From Escherichia phage vB_EcoM_VR7, in sequence record NC_014792.1: a stretch of 64,000 bases of DNA; one strand, 5' to 3'. How positions within the stretch are numbered: position 1 is the first letter of the stretch; the number at the start of each line of letters is the position of its first letter. Positions 23,245 to 64,000 of this stretch are shown here, piece after piece. Under the pieces are notes generated by a model. The model was not told the DNA's origin. It saw only the letters and a program-made list of their open reading frames with translations, and ran no database searches. The translations under genes were made by a program, and so were the position numbers.

Positions 23245-23613
23245 TTATGCGACTTTAATCCAATTATCTAAATTTAATTCACCCTTAGCTTTCATTTTTT
23301 CAATCAGATTATCTGCAGTGGTGCGACCATTTTGATACCAGGTTACATCTTCAGAATAACCAGTTTCTTCATCTTCATAGGTCTTACAACGAATCTTACC
23401 AAGAATTAAAGTTTTCAGTTCGTAGGTATCACCAGTAAAAAAGTTTGTTACCATAATTTTCCAGGAGAAGTCATCAGAAGGACCTTCTGGAGTCATGCAA
23501 GAAACGAATTCAAATTGTTCTTTATACAAGTGCCATTGCATTTCTTTAGTTTCAATGGCTTTGTAACCGTCGTGGTCTTTACCTTTGATGTATGAGTTAA
23601 GATTGATTTTCAT
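23245..23613 (-). CDS. hypothetical protein
   Basis: 122 aa; early promoter-like sequence upstream (23620-23690). Confidence 0.5.
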   Translation of the reverse strand: MKINLNSYIKGKDHDGYKAIETKEMQWHLYKEQFEFVSCMTPEGPSDDFSWKIMVTNFFTGDTYELKTLILGKIRCKTYEDEETGYSEDVTWYQNGRTTADNLIEKMKAKGELNLDNWIKVA

Positions 23614-23729
23614 TTTATTCTCCAGTGTTTTATTGTGTAACTCAGTATGGAATCATTATGCACTGGACCAACCCTGTTGTAAACCCCTTTATGGAAAATA
23701 AAAAAAGGGACTCCGAAGAGTCCCTGAAC

Positions 23730-23891
23730 TTATGCTTTCGGCTTACCAAAGCAAGCTGCATCGGCACGCAATACCGCACGAGCACGAGCCTGAAGTTTAT
23801 CAGTTACCTGATTGATTCGCTTGTTGGACGCACGCTTGTAACCAGCGCGTTTGGAGGAGCCATCAACAACTTTAACTTCTTTCTTAGCCAT
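23730..23891 (-). CDS. small highly basic protein (53 aa), not in the ORF track
   Basis: MAKKEVKVVDGSSKRAGYKRASNKRINQVTDKLQARARAVLRADAACFGKPKA; hairpin plus T-run terminator immediately after the stop on the minus strand. Confidence 0.3.
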   Translation of the reverse strand: MAKKEVKVVDGSSKRAGYKRASNKRINQVTDKLQARARAVLRADAACFGKPKA

Positions 23892-23922
23892 ATTAAATTC
23901 TCTTTAAAATAGAATGCAGGAC

Positions 23923-24117
23923 TTATTGACATTGCCTGCGCAAGCCCTCGAAGGGAACATTAGGTTTCGGATATTTAACGACAGGATAACCATAAACCTC
24001 GTCATCATACCAACCACGACTTAGACAGATAACCTTTTTCTGACGCGGGGTAGTACAAAATACATTCAAGAGGTACACCACAAAATTATCGGGGTCTAAA
24101 ACTATAATGATTCGCAA
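23923..24117 (-). CDS. hypothetical protein
   Basis: 64 aa ORF. Confidence 0.3.
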   Translation of the reverse strand: MRIIIVLDPDNFVVYLLNVFCTTPRQKKVICLSRGWYDDEVYGYPVVKYPKPNVPFEGLRRQCQ

Positions 24118-30870: not shown

Positions 30871-31220
30871 TTGGTGAGCTCCTGGAAGTCCTGGGCGAAC
30901 TTATCAAAGGACTGATTAATCTGTTTTTCAACTAATTTAGGCTTAGCTGCCACAACCTTAGTACGTTTTGCATCTACACGAAGTTTATCATTTTCCTTCT
31001 GCAGAAGTTCAACATATTCCTGGCGCTCCTGGTCAAGGAGATTAATTTGATTAACCTGGTCTTTTACTGATTGCAGATTTTTCGCGTTATCTTCTGCAAC
31101 TTTGGTGACCGCAGCCACCTCTGTCTTGAGATTATCCACTTTTGCTTTTAGATAGAAACCACTACCAGCAGTTACTACCAGGGCGAGCATAAGCCCCGCA
31201 GTGATATTACTTATTTGCAT
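30867..31220 (-). CDS. i-spanin (inner membrane, Rz-like; T4 pseT.3 equivalent)
   Basis: 117 aa; N-terminal transmembrane helix then a charged coiled-coil-like periplasmic domain. Confidence 0.65.
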   Translation of the reverse strand: MQISNITAGLMLALVVTAGSGFYLKAKVDNLKTEVAAVTKVAEDNAKNLQSVKDQVNQINLLDQERQEYVELLQKENDKLRVDAKRTKVVAAKPKLVEKQINQSFDKFAQDFQELTK

Positions 31221-31711
31221 AACTTGATGATTACCTCAACAATATCATCCTGGGATAAACCATTCAGGAGGATGTGATTTGTACTGTCAGATGCTGAAAT
31301 GCGGAACTGATTACCAACTTCATCCGCCATATCATCCTGGGTTAACACTGGATGTTTAATTCCCAGGCGGTGTTGAAGTGTCAGGGGTTCAACCACAACA
31401 TAACAAACACATCCATTGATATGCACATTAGGTTGGGTCTGATTGATGAACACTTCTGCATCATATTTAACCAAATGGTTCTTTAAGAAGTCAACCATTT
31501 CAGGAACAGATTCATGAAGTGCTTCTTTACGCTCTTCTGATTTCTTATTGCGATATTCCTTCTGTTTGGTCTTCAACTTATTATCAGACGCCAGTTTCTT
31601 TCTTAAGTCAGTAAGGAACCCAACATTTTTGGAACCTTTATAAACATAGATTCCGTCATGGCGGTCACCATATACATCAACAATCATTTCATTTGAAATC
31701 AGTTGCATATT
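31211..31711 (-). CDS. alc: Alc (inhibitor of host transcription on cytosine-containing DNA)
   Basis: 167 aa from MNMQLISNEM, the same length as T4 Alc; position between rnlA and the pseT block; the track start at 31813 is rejected. Confidence 0.55.
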   Translation of the reverse strand, partial: NMQLISNEMIVDVYGDRHDGIYVYKGSKNVGFLTDLRKKLASDNKLKTKQKEYRNKKSEERKEALHESVPEMVDFLKNHLVKYDAEVFINQTQPNVHINGCVCYVVVEPLTLQHRLGIKHPVLTQDDMADEVGNQFRISASDSTNHILLNGLSQDDIVEVIIKLCK

Positions 31712-31724
31712 CATAATATTTTCC

Positions 31725-31958
31725 TCAATAGCGGTTATAACCTCTAGGACCAAAAGAGTTTGCACCCAGGCGCTCATCTTTCTTTTTGGCTCTTGCTCTA
31801 AACCCAGAATCACCTGTTTGGTCTTTCAGTTCTTTTAACAATTTGGCCTTCAGGTCAGTAATGAAACCAATCCGGCGGTCTCCCTTGTAGACATAGATTC
31901 CATCATTTCTGTCACCATATGCCTTTGTAACTCTGTCATTTGAAATTAAGTTTAACAT
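31725..31958 (-). CDS. truncated Alc N-terminal-domain paralog
   Basis: About 77 aa; LISNDRVTKAYGDRNDGIYVYKGDRRIGFITDLKAKL closely parallels alc residues LISNEMIVDVYGDRHDGIYVYKGSKNVGFLTDLRKKL; similarity is also visible at DNA level. Confidence 0.45.
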   Translation of the reverse strand: MLNLISNDRVTKAYGDRNDGIYVYKGDRRIGFITDLKAKLLKELKDQTGDSGFRARAKKKDERLGANSFGPRGYNRY

Positions 31959-32029: not shown

Positions 32030-33166
32030 TTATTCAGGCAGGATTACATCCGCTTGGTAGTCCGCTGGGATGTAAAGTTTATGATTTTTAAGGAAAACAT
32101 TATTGATTTGAGCGATGGTTTGCTCTGTTTCCTGGGGACGTTGATACGTGTTCATTAATACGGAGAACAAACCCGGATATGGTTTACACAGTTCTTGACC
32201 TTTAATCGCAAACTCGCGTCGGTCTTTTCCTGCCAACTGTTTCTGGGCATCAAGCAACAGTCCCAGGGTATTGGACAGATAATCCAGATGGGTCAAAGTA
32301 AAGGCATTAACTTTTTCACGAGCATAATCATCGCCAGTAAACATGGCAATAACATCATCTGCACCGCCTGCGACAACAACTTCAAAAAGACGCTGGTTAT
32401 TGTTAACAGAATCCTTTGTATGGTGTAAAGCACAATACCATTCTGTCTTAACTTTAAATTTGCGACCATCGACCAGCTCATAGACAAAGCCTTCAATCTC
32501 TTTCATATCACGGACGTTTTCAATTGTAGCCGGGTCATATGCTTCAACCAGGAATGGGCGAAGCGCGGCATCTTTAAACAAATCCCGATAAGGGATATAT
32601 TCACCAGTTTCATTATGGCGAACGTTCAGTAAAATCAGGTCACGTTCCTGGTAAGGCAAAACAATGCGGTTGGTTGGCGCAACATATTCCATATTGCATG
32701 TATAACCAGCTTCAGTAATTTCAGTTACACGCTCACGGAAAGCTATACGGTGTTCTTGTTTGAATACCTGCAGGGCTTCTGCTGCCTGGGAGCTTTTGAT
32801 TGACCCTTTGGATTTAAAAGCAATATTGGTCTGGTCCATATAAGTGGAGACAAGAGAGCCATCAGCCTTGGTCATGACCAGCGCAACTTCATCCATATTG
32901 ATATCCATGGTCAACGGATTTTCGCCCAAGTTAAAGAACTTTTCCATAGGACGAGCCGCAATACGAACTGGACCATCTGCATCCATTTCAAACATAATGC
33001 CACGGCACTCTAATGCATCATCAAGGAGCCAATCACTATAGGAAGCATAGTTATAGCTAAAGATGCGGAACTTAGTTTCAAATGGAGAAACGAAATCAGT
33101 ATAGAAAAACTTACCTTTTTCAGATTCAGCGCACAGCTTCATTAAGTTGTCATATAATTCAATCAT
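32030..33166 (-). CDS. rnlA: RNA ligase 1
   Basis: 378 aa; strong match to T4 Rnl1 (FRIFSYNYASYSDWLL.DALECRGIMFEMD...TKADGSLVSTY). Confidence 0.95.
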   Translation of the reverse strand: MIELYDNLMKLCAESEKGKFFYTDFVSPFETKFRIFSYNYASYSDWLLDDALECRGIMFEMDADGPVRIAARPMEKFFNLGENPLTMDINMDEVALVMTKADGSLVSTYMDQTNIAFKSKGSIKSSQAAEALQVFKQEHRIAFRERVTEITEAGYTCNMEYVAPTNRIVLPYQERDLILLNVRHNETGEYIPYRDLFKDAALRPFLVEAYDPATIENVRDMKEIEGFVYELVDGRKFKVKTEWYCALHHTKDSVNNNQRLFEVVVAGGADDVIAMFTGDDYAREKVNAFTLTHLDYLSNTLGLLLDAQKQLAGKDRREFAIKGQELCKPYPGLFSVLMNTYQRPQETEQTIAQINNVFLKNHKLYIPADYQADVILPE

Positions 33167-33579
33167 TTCTTCACCTTATGTTGGTAGTTCCACGGGGGAT
33201 TAAAAAGCTTTATGAACATCGGCTCTTCCAGAGACATAGTTTCGACTGACATCGTACCAAGTTCATTGGTCATTGATAGATTGAAACATTGTCGTGCATA
33301 GAATACCACCTTTTGACCTGCATGTAAAGCTTCATGTATCATCCGGGATTTGTTTGAATCACTCGTTTGTTCTATACGATTGATTGCAGTCCGGTAATAA
33401 TTGATTCGCTTCTTCAGGTTGTTCGTCTTACCAATATACACTAGTTCATCGTCAACTGAAATAGCGTAGATAACATTTTTCTTGTTCGCGAGTGTAAGGG
33501 TAGGGATTTTACCATCGACTAACTCTAACTCCGCATATTTTATAAAACTGTATTCGTCAGCGATTTGTTTCATAGACAA
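33163..33579 (-). CDS. denA: endonuclease II (GIY-YIG nuclease)
   Basis: 138 aa; GIY-YIG-like motif VIYAISVDDELVYIGKTNNLKKRINYY; T4 denA position between rnlA and nrdB. Confidence 0.7.
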   Translation of the reverse strand: MSMKQIADEYSFIKYAELELVDGKIPTLTLANKKNVIYAISVDDELVYIGKTNNLKKRINYYRTAINRIEQTSDSNKSRMIHEALHAGQKVVFYARQCFNLSMTNELGTMSVETMSLEEPMFIKLFNPPWNYQHKVKK

Positions 33580-57462: not shown

Positions 57463-58842
57463 TCATAGAGCCTCCAAGTCATTAAGGTATTCAGTTTTAA
57501 CATCAGTTGCCTTCCAGTACTCATGCTCAGCTTTCTTAGCCTTTGCTTCGTCTGCAAGCTTCTTGGCTTCGTCAGAGGTCATATGGTAGATGTTCATCGC
57601 CACTAACTTCTCTGCATAATCGCCATATATTTCGCTTGCCTGGAGCTCCTCAATCAACTTCTTACGAGGTTTCCCCTGGATAACAACCTTGCCGTCAATC
57701 ACTTCTTTAATAAAGAAGACTTTCGCCCGGGCCAGTTTAAATGCTGCTTCAGTTTCTTTAATCTTGCTATCAATTCGCACTTGGACATAAGTCTTACGGA
57801 CATCAACGAAATCGCGAATCAGGTCAAGCGTGTTGGTGTATTCAGCCAGTTTACCTTTGTGATTAAGCACTGTTAAATTCTGGGAGAGCTTTTCAATCAG
57901 ACCAAAGTCTTTCATGATTTTCTCATGATTCTCTTCTTCAGTGCCGTCCAGCTTGTATTCTTTACGGAATTTAATCTTAAACCCAAAACCATGTTCGCCG
58001 CAGTTATCTTTCCAGGTGATAAAACCTTTCTCTTCCAGCGGGTCCAGGATTTTACTTGTATACTTTTCCAGGTTCCATTGAACCGGGATTTCAGTAATTT
58101 CCATTTGAGTCCTGGAAGTCATTTTGTACGTGCCATGAAGCTCATACTTACCAGGCTCTTCCAGCTCAACCACTTCACCGCGGAATTCTGGATATTTTAC
58201 TTTCGGAGCAACCGGCTCACGACCTTCCACGATAGCTTTAACAGCTTCCTTGACATCCTGGAACGAATGAGGAAGAATATCAGTAGCGAAGCCAACAGCA
58301 ATCCCAGAAGTGGCGTTAAGTAATACAGTAGGAATAACAGGAAGATAAAAAGCAGGAGGCTTATGTTCTTCATCAGGATGGACCGGAGCATATTCTGTAT
58401 CCTTAAACAAGTTGTAAAAGTTCTTTGAAACCCTTGCGAATACATAACGAGCTGATGATGCTTCTGGAACCATTCTGGAACCAAAGTTGCCCTGTCCATC
58501 AAACATAGGGTATTCATTTTTATATGTTGCGACCAAACCAGAAGTTGCTTCTTCAGCTGATGCTTCACCATGGTGATAACCATAATCAGCTACGCCACCT
58601 GCGATGGATGCAACCTTGTGGAATTTATTCTTATCGCCACGAGCCAGGTCTAATGCTCTCGCCATAACAAATCTGTGAACTGGTTTAAAACCATCAATCA
58701 TGTTTGGGATGGCGCGACCTTCCACAGTGTAGATAGCATATGACAATGCTTCCACATCAATAATGTCTTTTAGACTACGTGGGTTAAGGGACCCCATGGA
58801 ATCACTGAACTGTTTGGACATCATACTTAAAACGTCAGACAT
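57463..58842 (-). CDS. 52: DNA topoisomerase II medium subunit gp52
   Basis: 459 aa; strong match to T4 gp52 (AIPNMIDGFKPV.RFV.ARALDLARG.K.KFHK.ASIAGGVAD.GYHHGE). Confidence 0.9.
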   Translation of the reverse strand: MSDVLSMMSKQFSDSMGSLNPRSLKDIIDVEALSYAIYTVEGRAIPNMIDGFKPVHRFVMARALDLARGDKNKFHKVASIAGGVADYGYHHGEASAEEATSGLVATYKNEYPMFDGQGNFGSRMVPEASSARYVFARVSKNFYNLFKDTEYAPVHPDEEHKPPAFYLPVIPTVLLNATSGIAVGFATDILPHSFQDVKEAVKAIVEGREPVAPKVKYPEFRGEVVELEEPGKYELHGTYKMTSRTQMEITEIPVQWNLEKYTSKILDPLEEKGFITWKDNCGEHGFGFKIKFRKEYKLDGTEEENHEKIMKDFGLIEKLSQNLTVLNHKGKLAEYTNTLDLIRDFVDVRKTYVQVRIDSKIKETEAAFKLARAKVFFIKEVIDGKVVIQGKPRKKLIEELQASEIYGDYAEKLVAMNIYHMTSDEAKKLADEAKAKKAEHEYWKATDVKTEYLNDLEAL

Positions 58843-59240: not shown

Positions 59241-59690
59241 TTAATAGCTCTGTAGAATGAATTTAAAGTTATCAGCAAGCATGCGATTCATTTCTGAAAG
59301 GGTCTGGCAATCAGAACTATGCGAGCGAGTGAACGCCATCGCAATTTGACCTTTACCATAACCAGTTGTCAGAGGTTTCATTTTAGAAACCGGGACAAAC
59401 AGGACTTCATAGATAACCCCATTGTTCGCCATTGTGCGAGACAGTTGTGAACGCTGTTTGCGGATGTGACTTAATACAGTGTCAAACCCTTGTTGTGAAC
59501 GTTGGTTACCAACATAAAAACGTGCAGCAACAATACGTGATTCGCCTTCACCTTTGACCACGAAATAAAAACCTGGTTGGGTGATAGCTTCTTTAGTTGG
59601 ACGACCCGCAACATAATTACCATTATGGATGTAAGCAATAGTGGTAGCGCCAGCATTCAGTACGTCACGACGAGTCATGTAAGTAGTCAT
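59241..59690 (-). CDS. hypothetical protein; positional candidate for Ndd
   Basis: 149 aa, close to T4 Ndd size and position; no sequence recall to confirm. Confidence 0.4.
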
Positions 59691-60839: not shown

Positions 60840-61106
60840 TCAAAATATCACCTCTTTGATTTCAATCAATCCCCTGTACAATGCAGTGCGGAGGTCATAA
60901 AGAATATCTATGCCATCAACATTATCCAGCTTGCCATCAATAAGCTTTTCCAAATCTTCCTTTGATGCAACCAATGGGCGAAGAAATTTACAATCAGAAA
61001 GAGATAACTCTGTAGTAACATCATCACCATCACCTGACGCATCATACATAGCGGCAATAACCCATACCTGTACTTTGTGTTTGGCGTAGTATAATTTAAT
61101 ATCCAT
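60840..61106 (-). CDS. hypothetical acidic protein
   Basis: About 88 aa from MDIKLYY with GGAG RBS; early promoter upstream. Confidence 0.4.
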   Translation of the reverse strand: MDIKLYYAKHKVQVWVIAAMYDASGDGDDVTTELSLSDCKFLRPLVASKEDLEKLIDGKLDNVDGIDILYDLRTALYRGLIEIKEVIF

Positions 61107-61181
61107 TTTTTCTCCAGTTGTTTGGTAACTCAGTATGGAATCATTATACATAGACTCCATACTGATGTACACTATTTTTAA

Positions 61182-61457
61182 TTAATTGTGCATTTGTTCT
61201 TTAACTTCTTTGTATGCACCAACTGCACTCACGACCCCAGTAAAATCTGCAGTCCCACGATAGAGATAGAAAGCAATTTCAGTCAGGTGGTAGACTTCAA
61301 ATTCTGAAAGATAAACGATAACGTCATAATAGGCAACTTGACCCTGGACTTCATTGAATACTACATCAAAAATTTCATGGGTTGGAAAATTGATGTTGTT
61401 GTTTTTGAGTGCTTGAATGAGAATTTGTTTGATGTGGTGAGTAGTAACGTGTTCCAT
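61182..61457 (-). CDS. hypothetical protein
   Basis: About 91 aa from MEHVTTHH with GAGGA RBS. Confidence 0.4.
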   Translation of the reverse strand: MEHVTTHHIKQILIQALKNNNINFPTHEIFDVVFNEVQGQVAYYDVIVYLSEFEVYHLTEIAFYLYRGTADFTGVVSAVGAYKEVKEQMHN

Positions 61458-61504
61458 GATAATGTCCTCATTTGTTGGTGTGAGGACATTATTACACAGT
61501 TGGT

Positions 61505-62098
61505 TCAGCTTGTAAACCGGTGATAGGGAAATTTTTCTTCTGAACAAGAACGGAGGTACCAACCATCCCCTTGTGACTTCTGCACAAGTCCAGACTCAGG
61601 AACGAAAGCACCAGGTCCAGCAAGGAATTTTGGTTTAAATCTATAACCTTTGATAGTCTCTTTTACATTAAACATAATCATAAGGTCAGCAAGCTTGTGC
61701 TGCATAAAGGGTCCAAGATTAACTCCGTAACCATGTGGATAATCGCCCTGGTGACCAGTATGCACGGATATCCATTTGGAGCCAGATTGGTGAGTCTTAA
61801 CTTCGATTCTTACCCCTTCCTGGGAGACTACATCGAATGCAAAAGAGAATGGGTTATTGTAATCTTCATCGCCGCCACATAAGAAACCGGAGGTCCATTT
61901 GGCAATAGCTTGTTCGGCCATTGTAGCTACCATACATCTTTGCATGACTTGCTCATGGTCCTGGGCTGGGTCTTTACGCAATGAATACCTGGCAGTGTCT
62001 ACAATCTTTTGCAGGGATTCGGGGGTTAAGTCTTCCTTTGTATAAAGAAAGGAGGGCATCTTTTTCAGATGCTCCCATGTTTTACTCTTCTGAATCAT
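61505..62098 (-). CDS. putative PD-(D/E)xK-like nuclease; positional candidate for denB
   Basis: About 197 aa from MIQKSK with GAGG RBS; D...E.K pattern (FAFDVVSQEGVRIEVKT); near rIIB as T4 denB is. Confidence 0.4.
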   Translation of the reverse strand: MIQKSKTWEHLKKMPSFLYTKEDLTPESLQKIVDTARYSLRKDPAQDHEQVMQRCMVATMAEQAIAKWTSGFLCGGDEDYNNPFSFAFDVVSQEGVRIEVKTHQSGSKWISVHTGHQGDYPHGYGVNLGPFMQHKLADLMIMFNVKETIKGYRFKPKFLAGPGAFVPESGLVQKSQGDGWYLRSCSEEKFPYHRFTS

Positions 62099-62351
62099 CT
62101 TGAACCTCATCGATACCGACGATTCCTCGGATATGAAGCTCGCCATAGTACAAACGGTCATTAGCATCAAATGTATCGGAATCCGGGTCAGGGAATTCCC
62201 CAACAACTACTTCATCACATTCCAACCAGCCATAGTGAACATCACCTTCATGCTTGATGAGCTTACCACAGTAAACTGTTCCTGCATAATGATGACCCCG
62301 GAGATTTGAAACTTTGATGTCACGGTCTGACACATTGAAATGCTTAATCAT
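62082..62351 (-). CDS. hypothetical acidic protein
   Basis: 89 aa ORF. Confidence 0.4.
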   Translation of the reverse strand: MIKHFNVSDRDIKVSNLRGHHYAGTVYCGKLIKHEGDVHYGWLECDEVVVGEFPDPDSDTFDANDRLYYGELHIRGIVGIDEVQDDSEE

Positions 62352-62354
62352 AAT

Positions 62355-62564
62355 TTATTCACCAAAATAAGAAATACGGATTGCCAGTACATGAGCGTAA
62401 GCGCTCATTGCATCTAACTGGGCATTCAAAAGACCTTGCTGACGATTATCGAGAGTTTCAAAAACACCACCTTTAATAAACTCTTCAAGAGCATTGATTT
62501 TCAGGACCAGTTGGTCATATTCTTCAACTACACGTGCTTGGAAACCTAACATTTCTTTAGACAT
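62355..62564 (-). CDS. hypothetical protein
   Basis: 69 aa ORF. Confidence 0.4.
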   Translation of the reverse strand: MSKEMLGFQARVVEEYDQLVLKINALEEFIKGGVFETLDNRQQGLLNAQLDAMSAYAHVLAIRISYFGE

Positions 62565-63048
62565 TGTGTTCTTCCATATATTTTAATCGAGCTTCATTTG
62601 CTTCTTCTGGAGTTGCAAAAGCTCCGACTTGAGTTTGTTTTTTATTTCGCATAATAGTGGCTCGCCATGGTTTATTCAAAGCTCGTTTATCAAACGAGAC
62701 TCCTTTAAATCCAGACTTGTTGTTATTATACGGGCGCTTATTTAAAGCATTCTCACCTGGACTAACCCATCTGCAGTTATCGGGAGAGTACCCTTTATCG
62801 TTATCTGTTCGGTCAAGTTGATGTTTGTCAGTGGGTCGTGACCCCATATCTGTATAAAATCTTTCAAAATCATGCAGCCATTCATCGCAAACAGTGATAC
62901 CCCGCCCGCCATATCGAGAATAACTAATATGTGTTGGATTGCAACACCGAGCTTTCATGCCAATCCATACAATGTATTCAGGCGTGTGACCTAGCCCGTG
63001 GACAATACCACGAGCCGAGCCATCTTTAGCAATTGTTTGTTTAATCAT
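62557..63048 (-). CDS. HNH endonuclease with C-terminal AP2-type DNA-binding domain (homing endonuclease-like)
   Basis: 163 aa; HNH core (DRTDNDKGYSPDNCRWVSPGEN) then AP2-like segment (SGFKGVSFDKRALNKPWRATIMRNKKQTQVGAFATPEEA). Confidence 0.7.
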   Translation of the reverse strand: MIKQTIAKDGSARGIVHGLGHTPEYIVWIGMKARCCNPTHISYSRYGGRGITVCDEWLHDFERFYTDMGSRPTDKHQLDRTDNDKGYSPDNCRWVSPGENALNKRPYNNNKSGFKGVSFDKRALNKPWRATIMRNKKQTQVGAFATPEEANEARLKYMEEHNV

Positions 63049-64000
63049 TGAAACGTTCGGTCACATCTTCAAGAACCAGGTAACCACAAACCCTCATCTT
63101 ACTATCGGAATAATCCACCGGGATACTTACAACATCACGTGGGTGAACTTTACAGGATACGATACGGCCATCACCATGACCAAAACCGCTTCCGATATAA
63201 CCTTTAGAGCAAACATGCAGTCCAGTTGAACAGGTCTGTTCGTCATTGTCATTCACACGAGAGCGCGGCATTTTAACATATTGACCAGGGCTGTTGTCAA
63301 ATGTATTTGAGTGACAATCTTTGTAGGTTGAACGAACCATTTTCCAGGCGATGAAATGACCGTCTTCAGTGATTTCGATATCGTTCGCAACCAGGAAGTC
63401 AAACAAACGCTGTACTGCTTTCTCGCTTGGGTTCTCAAGGAGATTCTCAAGGAACGGCAGATAGAATTCAAAATCTTCGCCATTTTGCATTGAATTGATG
63501 ATACGAGTAACCAGACCGGAGCGCAGTTCAATTCCCTGATAGAACAGACTACCGCCTTCAATACGCACATCGCCTTTCACATATTTTTGCACCGCAGCTT
63601 TGATAGAGATAAACTCGATAGCATCATCAAAACGAGATTCTTTGAGTGCCTGGATAATAGCATCAAAGTGTTTATGGTCTTTTGTTGCGTTCCAGACTGT
63701 ACGACCTTCGGTGATGGAAACGAATTTGCTTGATGCGTTCCATACGATTTCCGGTCGGCTTCCACCAATTGTATCAGTAACTGGGACCACTTGAGGTTCA
63801 TTAGGAACCGTTACTGTAATATTTCCGGTAATAACTACTTCAGAAGGCTTAAATTCTTTATCATTTTTCAAAACGCGACGAATGGTATCAACTGAAATAT
63901 TGTACCAGTCAGCTAGTTCCTGCTGTGTATAGTTACCTGAAGCATACAGAGAAACAATTTGTTTTTGTTCGTATTCAGAGACGCATTTAATATTGTACAT
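63041..64000 (-). CDS. rIIB: rIIB lysis inhibition protein
   Basis: 319 aa; strong match to T4 rIIB (MYNIKC...YTQQELADW...DTIRRVLKN...ENLLENPS.KAV.RLFDFLVANDIEITEDG); start codon is the last three bases of the window, so the promoter is outside. Confidence 0.9.
   Translation of the reverse strand: MYNIKCVSEYEQKQIVSLYASGNYTQQELADWYNISVDTIRRVLKNDKEFKPSEVVITGNITVTVPNEPQVVPVTDTIGGSRPEIVWNASSKFVSITEGRTVWNATKDHKHFDAIIQALKESRFDDAIEFISIKAAVQKYVKGDVRIEGGSLFYQGIELRSGLVTRIINSMQNGEDFEFYLPFLENLLENPSEKAVQRLFDFLVANDIEITEDGHFIAWKMVRSTYKDCHSNTFDNSPGQYVKMPRSRVNDNDEQTCSTGLHVCSKGYIGSGFGHGDGRIVSCKVHPRDVVSIPVDYSDSKMRVCGYLVLEDVTERFND

Follow-up and report, generated by a model that had tools for sequence, protein, structure and literature searches.

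Evidence that an open reading frame downstream of rIIB in coliphage VR7 is denB (endonuclease IV), a predicted PD-(D/E)xK nuclease

The denB locus and its neighbours

The window analysed here is a stretch of 64,000 nucleotides from Escherichia phage vB_EcoM_VR7 (NC_014792.1), and all positions given below without further qualification are positions in the window. The open reading frame (ORF) under study, its start signals and the genes around it are the following.

61505..62098, minus strand: denB coding sequence, 594 nt, encoding 197 aa followed by a TGA stop (from the ORF list and the translation)
62105..62108, minus strand: Shine-Dalgarno sequence GAGG, separated by a 6-nt spacer from the ATG at 62096..62098 (direct reading of the sequence)
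62082..62351, minus strand: hypothetical ORF of 89 aa, PHROG 2237, whose last 17 nt overlap the start of denB
62355..62564, minus strand: denB.1 homolog, 69 aa, 51% identical to T4 DenB.1 (E 9e-21)
62557..63048, minus strand: HNH endonuclease gene, 163 aa, PHROG 374 (E 1e-58), between rIIB and denB.1
63041..64000, minus strand: rIIB, 319 aa, 64% identical to T4 RIIB (E 1e-154), PHROG 609
59241..59690 (about): ndd
57463..58842: gene 52, topoisomerase
33166..33573: denA
31214..31714: alc

The ORF is real, consisting of exactly one minus-strand coding sequence that opens with the ATG at 62098 and is preceded, 6 nt upstream, by GAGG. A mechanical search for ORFs places the start at a TTG at 62206, which we rejected because the extension falls within the upstream gene 62082..62351. 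The ATG, on the other hand, is the start used in the annotation of phage VR25, where the overlap with the upstream ORF is the same 17 nt, and in an alignment of 26 homologs it coincides with the N-termini of the DenB family (MIxNSxTW...). This alignment comprises the query, T4 DenB and 24 other proteins, the homologs being 24-66% identical to the query.

A first, sequence-only reading had placed a candidate nuclease near rIIB, in the region where T4 encodes denB, and the placement is borne out by the gene order: rIIB, denB.1, denB, a run of small ORFs and ndd follow one another on the same strand, with gene 52 beyond them, as in T4 and VR25. The genes cd and td are also present in the window, alongside alc, denA and ndd. 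Over 61000..64000 the DNA is 98% identical to that of VR25, one insertion excepted. This insertion is the HNH endonuclease gene, which overlaps each of its neighbours by 8 nt and is lacking between rIIB and denB.1 in VR25 and SP18, where the matches are split in two around 62557..63048, while in TH54, MN01, DCP80 and phage 212 they run continuously across it. The pattern of presence and absence fits a mobile homing-endonuclease insertion.

The locus differs from that of T4 in the additional 89-aa ORF between denB.1 and denB, which is missing from T4, and the phage belongs to a genus without gene 42. The 17-nt overlap of this ORF with the denB start suggests coupled translation. We considered the 89-aa protein as a Gaprivervirus-specific regulator of DenB and rejected the idea, since the ORF is widespread in genera whose DNA contains hydroxymethylcytosine (hmC): it adjoins denB in 656 phage records from several genera, T6, WG01/MX01 and Klebsiella phages included.

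Elsewhere in the window, a short ORF on the minus strand directly upstream of alc (31770..31955) matches the first 60 residues of Alc at 50% identity and, as judged from this similarity, is a putative partial alc paralog. Its counterpart in VR25, gp201, carries the annotation 'inhibitor of host transcription'.

Homology, active-site residues and predicted fold

Homology, synteny, fold prediction and residue conservation were computed for the product of 61505..62098 itself. The protein matches PHROG 1360 ('DenB-like DNA endonuclease IV') from end to end (E 6e-80; residues 1-196 against positions 1-203 of the 203-position profile). By BLASTP it is 45% identical to T4 DenB (NP_049887, 185 aa) over 178 aa (E 6e-57), a near-full-length similarity between proteins encoded in the same slot downstream of rIIB and denB.1. 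Its identity to the denB products of other Gaprivervirus phages (VR25, YP_009210032; VR20; VR26; SP18) is 95-98.5%, with VR25 at 98.5%, and these genes agree with it in length, in start and in the 17-nt upstream overlap. When 50,697 phage records were searched by tblastn, 1089 gave a denB match; 33 records are 90-99% identical to the denB product, and the annotated ones among the 33 are labelled denB or endonuclease IV; all 33 come from phages of the Gaprivervirus type. By sequence the family is nevertheless a narrow one, with 22 cluster representatives matched among 1.84 billion proteins. A second ORF resembling DenB, which in this block would have spoken against the sequence-only reading, was seen neither in the window nor anywhere in the VR25 genome, which is complete; the next best phmmer hit has an E-value of 0.63.

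That reading could not choose between the denB ortholog and some other nuclease; homology and synteny decide for the ortholog. A different PD-(D/E)xK nuclease, for example of the homing or restriction type, could in principle have displaced denB from its slot, as this block does take up mobile nuclease genes (the HNH gene is one) and scans of the ORF against Pfam-A and NCBIfam returned sub-threshold noise only, with no family match. The empty scans, however, reflect the libraries: T4 DenB itself is without an NCBIfam match, no member of the 26-homolog alignment, T4 DenB included, rises above the Pfam threshold, and the Pfam-A set that we scanned does not contain PF26887, a precomputed Pfam family listed for 15 of 15 close homologs. 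The full-length match to PHROG 1360, the homology to T4 DenB and the 26-homolog alignment refute a displacement of this kind, to which we attach practically no credence.

Weak matches to the Pfam family NOV_C, a member of the PDDEXK clan, were seen in 6 of the 26 family members. A sequence search of the PDB, run both with the single sequence and with a profile of the 26-homolog alignment, gave no meaningful match; hits to photosystem subunits and to Pil1/Lsp1 helices, with E-values of about 0.01-0.3, were treated as chance. The search of 1.84 billion proteins also brought up two long ones, P0030 (643 aa) and P0036 (1745 aa). Each is hit 10 times along its length by a short piece of DenB, query residues 172-194 in P0030 and 89-138 in P0036, as would be expected of repeat proteins; a connection with the function of DenB is improbable.

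The residues on which the functional assignment turns map to the window as follows.

61793..61843, minus strand: motif FAFDVVSQEGVRIEVKT, residues 86-102, which holds D89, E99, K101, F88 and R97 (from the alignment and the model)
61832..61834, minus strand: codon of D89, predicted catalytic triad D...ExK
61802..61804, minus strand: codon of E99, predicted catalytic triad D...ExK
61796..61798, minus strand: codon of K101, predicted catalytic triad D...ExK
61913..61915, minus strand: codon of E62, in helix 48-68, a putative metal-binding residue in the first helix of the PD-(D/E)xK core
61886..61888, minus strand: codon of G71, invariant in the 26 homologs
61559..61576, minus strand: codons of S175 to W180 (SQGDGW), from the pairwise alignment with T4 DenB

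Across the 26-homolog alignment E62, G71, D89, R97, E99, V100, K101 and D138 are invariant. Since D89, E99 and K101 are retained down to 24% identity, the D...E.K pattern is not a chance occurrence. T4 DenB and the window protein have in common E62, G71, D89, the ExK motif and the residues corresponding to T4 S176 and T2 G180/W181; thus the positions defined by mutations are kept (G71; S175 for T4 S176; G179 and W180 for T2 G180 and W181). The column of T4 W88 is occupied here by F88, and it is aromatic (W, F or Y) in all family members aligned. The two proteins also differ in the loop from D89 to R97, which is 3 residues shorter in the window protein, and at the C-terminus, which is 14 residues longer here, as in most members other than T4, with an extra strand predicted at 192-194.

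An AlphaFold2 model built on the 26-homolog alignment has a mean pLDDT of 91.3 and a pTM of 0.88; confidence is lowest over residues 71-90 (block means 72-80), a segment that includes D89. In the model E62 lies in helix 48-68, D89 stands immediately before a short strand (90-91) and E99-V-K101 falls within strand 97-103. As modelled, this layout is the canonical arrangement of a PD-(D/E)xK core. Foldseek matched the model to NhoI (E 6e-4, probability 0.99). The same core fold is predicted as in R.SwaI (5tgq), Eco15I (8q5m), NhoI (8q5n), DpnI (4esj), PvuII (1ni0) and Hjc (2wcw), enzymes of the PD-(D/E)xK superfamily that likewise carry E...D...ExK on helix, strand and strand, at an identity of only 5-15%. 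The profile and structure searches that the sequence-only reading had called for, namely the full-length match to PHROG 1360 and the structural match to NhoI, were thus both positive, and its guess of a PD-(D/E)xK nuclease agrees with the restriction-endonuclease-like fold predicted by AlphaFold2 and Foldseek. A conserved PD-D/ExK motif in DenB was stated independently in 2025, from AlphaFold2 models and alignments (PMC12405507).

In the BFVD library of viral structures the best matches to the model are DenB homologs (TM 0.8-0.9), followed by uncharacterised phage proteins and by proteins labelled restriction endonuclease, NO VEIN C-terminal or PDDEXK-like. Among the uncharacterised proteins, A0A060AI46, A0A7S9SP41, A0A6J5L8Z3, A0A2I6UGH3 and A0A2U7UBU7 reach TM 0.5-0.67 at 11-22% identity to DenB; the sources of these DenB-like proteins are uncultured Caudovirales, a Salinibacter phage and a Pandoravirus. 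In view of structural matches at such low identity, the DenB-like variant of the fold may extend beyond the 22 cluster representatives.

With E. coli endonuclease IV (Nfo), DenB shares only the name. Nfo is a TIM-barrel AP endonuclease, whereas the fold predicted for DenB is PD-(D/E)xK, and the AP-endonuclease Pfam family gave no match in the denB ORF or in the 26 family members.

It might also be asked whether the ORF is a decayed or non-catalytic remnant of denB. The frame is intact, at the length usual for the family and behind a good ribosome-binding site, every invariant family residue is present, and protein identity stays high (90-99%) across 33 independently isolated phages. Neither the ORF nor the alignment nor the relatives provided any support for decay, and we regard a remnant as next to impossible.

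We conclude that 61505..62098 is very probably orthologous to T4 denB, the gene for endonuclease IV, in a T4-like coliphage of the Gaprivervirus type, and that its product is very probably a metal-dependent PD-(D/E)xK nuclease, small and made up of a single domain. It is an ordinary gene, annotated already and of a kind characterised already. For genome annotation the label denB (endonuclease IV, PD-(D/E)xK fold) is justified with high confidence, and the case is a routine one.

Activity expected from the T4 and T2 enzymes

What follows on the substrate of the enzyme, its specificity for dC, its need for metal and its role in infection is inferred from experiments on T4 and T2 DenB. T4 endonuclease IV requires a divalent cation (Mg2+, Mn2+, Co2+ or Ca2+). 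In single-stranded DNA it breaks the phosphodiester bond that lies 5' to a dC, preferring TCA; double-stranded DNA, single-stranded RNA and denatured T4 DNA containing glucosylated hmC are not cut (PMC1635256). The enzyme is highly toxic when cloned, and its expression in E. coli is lethal (PMC1635256). Mutation W88R abolishes activity. The S176N enzyme retains 17.5% activity, but its cleavage of dC tracts is no longer restricted and polarised, and it is no longer toxic (PMC2175332). Restriction enzymes of the PD-(D/E)xK type act on a duplex recognition site; DenB, by comparison, would act on single-stranded DNA with specificity for dC.

Defence by retron Eco2 is triggered when T2 DenB cuts the retron's msDNA upstream of dC, and the mutations by which T2 escapes Eco2 lie in DenB: G71R, near the active site, and G180E and W181*, at the DNA-binding interface. 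The G71R protein is catalytically inactive (PMC12916289). DenB is accordingly described as the phage trigger sensed by Eco2 (PMC12916289, PMC12405507). DenB is also a chief cause of the low frequency at which host or plasmid DNA is transduced by T-even phages (PMC12115623).

Although the protein is only 45% identical to the characterised T4 enzyme, we expect the same chemistry and the same role as in T4 and T2. In the active site that we propose, Mg2+ would be bound and a water molecule activated by four residues: E62 from the long helix, D89 ahead of the second core strand, and the pair E99 and K101 from the third. By orthology with the T4 enzyme, the denB product would nick cytosine-containing single-stranded DNA 5' of dC, and the region of S175 and G179-W180 would contribute to DNA binding and to the reading of dC tracts. 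During infection this activity would assist in the destruction of host and plasmid DNA and block the replication of DNA with unmodified dC, the phage's own DNA being spared through modification of its cytosines. By cleaving retron msDNA, the denB product would likely act as a trigger of retron Eco2; because the positions altered in Eco2 escape mutants are retained in its DenB, the phage should be Eco2-sensitive.

Cytosine modification and self-protection

T4 DNA escapes DenB through the replacement of cytosine by glucosylated hmC. This explanation cannot be transferred as it stands, since VR25, the closest complete genome, is without a recognisable dCMP hydroxymethylase or glucosyltransferase: tblastn and phmmer searches with T4 gp42 (dCMP hydroxymethylase) and beta-glucosyltransferase found no homolog in the complete VR25 genome or in the window. 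With T4 gp42 as the phmmer query, a second thymidylate-synthase-like gene was not found either, td itself scoring at noise level. Genes 56, alc, denA and denB are kept in VR25, the gp56 dCTPase at 68% identity. The absence of recognisable hmC genes from the genus has been noted in two papers, in which a non-canonical base was suggested (PMC8056088, PMC12115623). In a BREX study, restriction analysis is reported to show non-glycosylated 'modified cytosines' in VR7 DNA, which is described differently from the DNA of a hydroxymethylated T4 mutant (PMC6326788, Supplementary Fig. S4).

The retention of a dC-specific nuclease alongside the lack of a recognisable hmC pathway points to an uncharacterised cytosine modification in the genus. 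We advance, tentatively and with some doubt, the reading that discrimination between self and non-self by Gaprivervirus DenB depends on such a modification or on an uncharacterised biosynthetic enzyme. That the lineage is without the T4 dCMP hydroxymethylase and glucosyltransferases, whether these were lost or never had, and yet keeps denB, denA, alc and gene 56, forms part of the same reading and is offered equally tentatively. If this were true, denB would offer a genetic route to the modification or the enzyme, a question already raised in the two papers. The identity of the ORF as denB is unaffected by the question of self-protection.

As a rival to an ordinary denB, the ORF might encode a true DenB homolog with shifted discrimination, which would distinguish host dC from some other cytosine modification, or which would be kept in check through its timing or a partner protein and not through base modification. 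Such a shift would accord with the absence of gp42 and beta-glucosyltransferase from VR25, which is 98% identical in this region and keeps gp56, with the lack of hmC genes at the level of the genus, with the non-glycosylated modified cytosines of VR7 and with the hypothetical 89-aa ORF that overlaps the denB start. Every residue of known importance in T4 or T2 DenB is, however, conserved or conservatively replaced; the 89-aa neighbour occurs also in hmC-containing genera, T6 among them, and so is no adaptation specific to Gaprivervirus; and the VR7 modification may after all be hmC, formed by an enzyme that has escaped recognition. We therefore consider shifted discrimination improbable, and an ordinary denB, conserved in the residues that matter, remains the preferred reading.

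A brief search for the gene behind the cytosine modification found none. In VR25 the T4 slot uvsX - (segA) - beta-gt - 42 - imm holds only one hypothetical gene of 167 aa (23422..23925, minus strand, within the stretch 22052..24309 of L003, a part of the VR25 genome; PHROG 1754), whose product has no Pfam match. Homologs of PHROG 1754 occur also in JS10, Bp7, IME08 and WG01, which we take to be Dhakavirus-type phages. Dhakavirus carries a hydroxymethylase gene (PMC12115623). Since phages that carry this gene have the PHROG 1754 protein as well, the protein is unlikely to replace gene 42, and we dropped it as a candidate. A Pfam scan of ten other hypothetical ORFs of the VR lineage yielded only DUF7275 and DUF7277, both in one protein. 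In Erwinia phages the homologs of PHROG 1754 adjoin an arabinose-5-phosphate isomerase gene.
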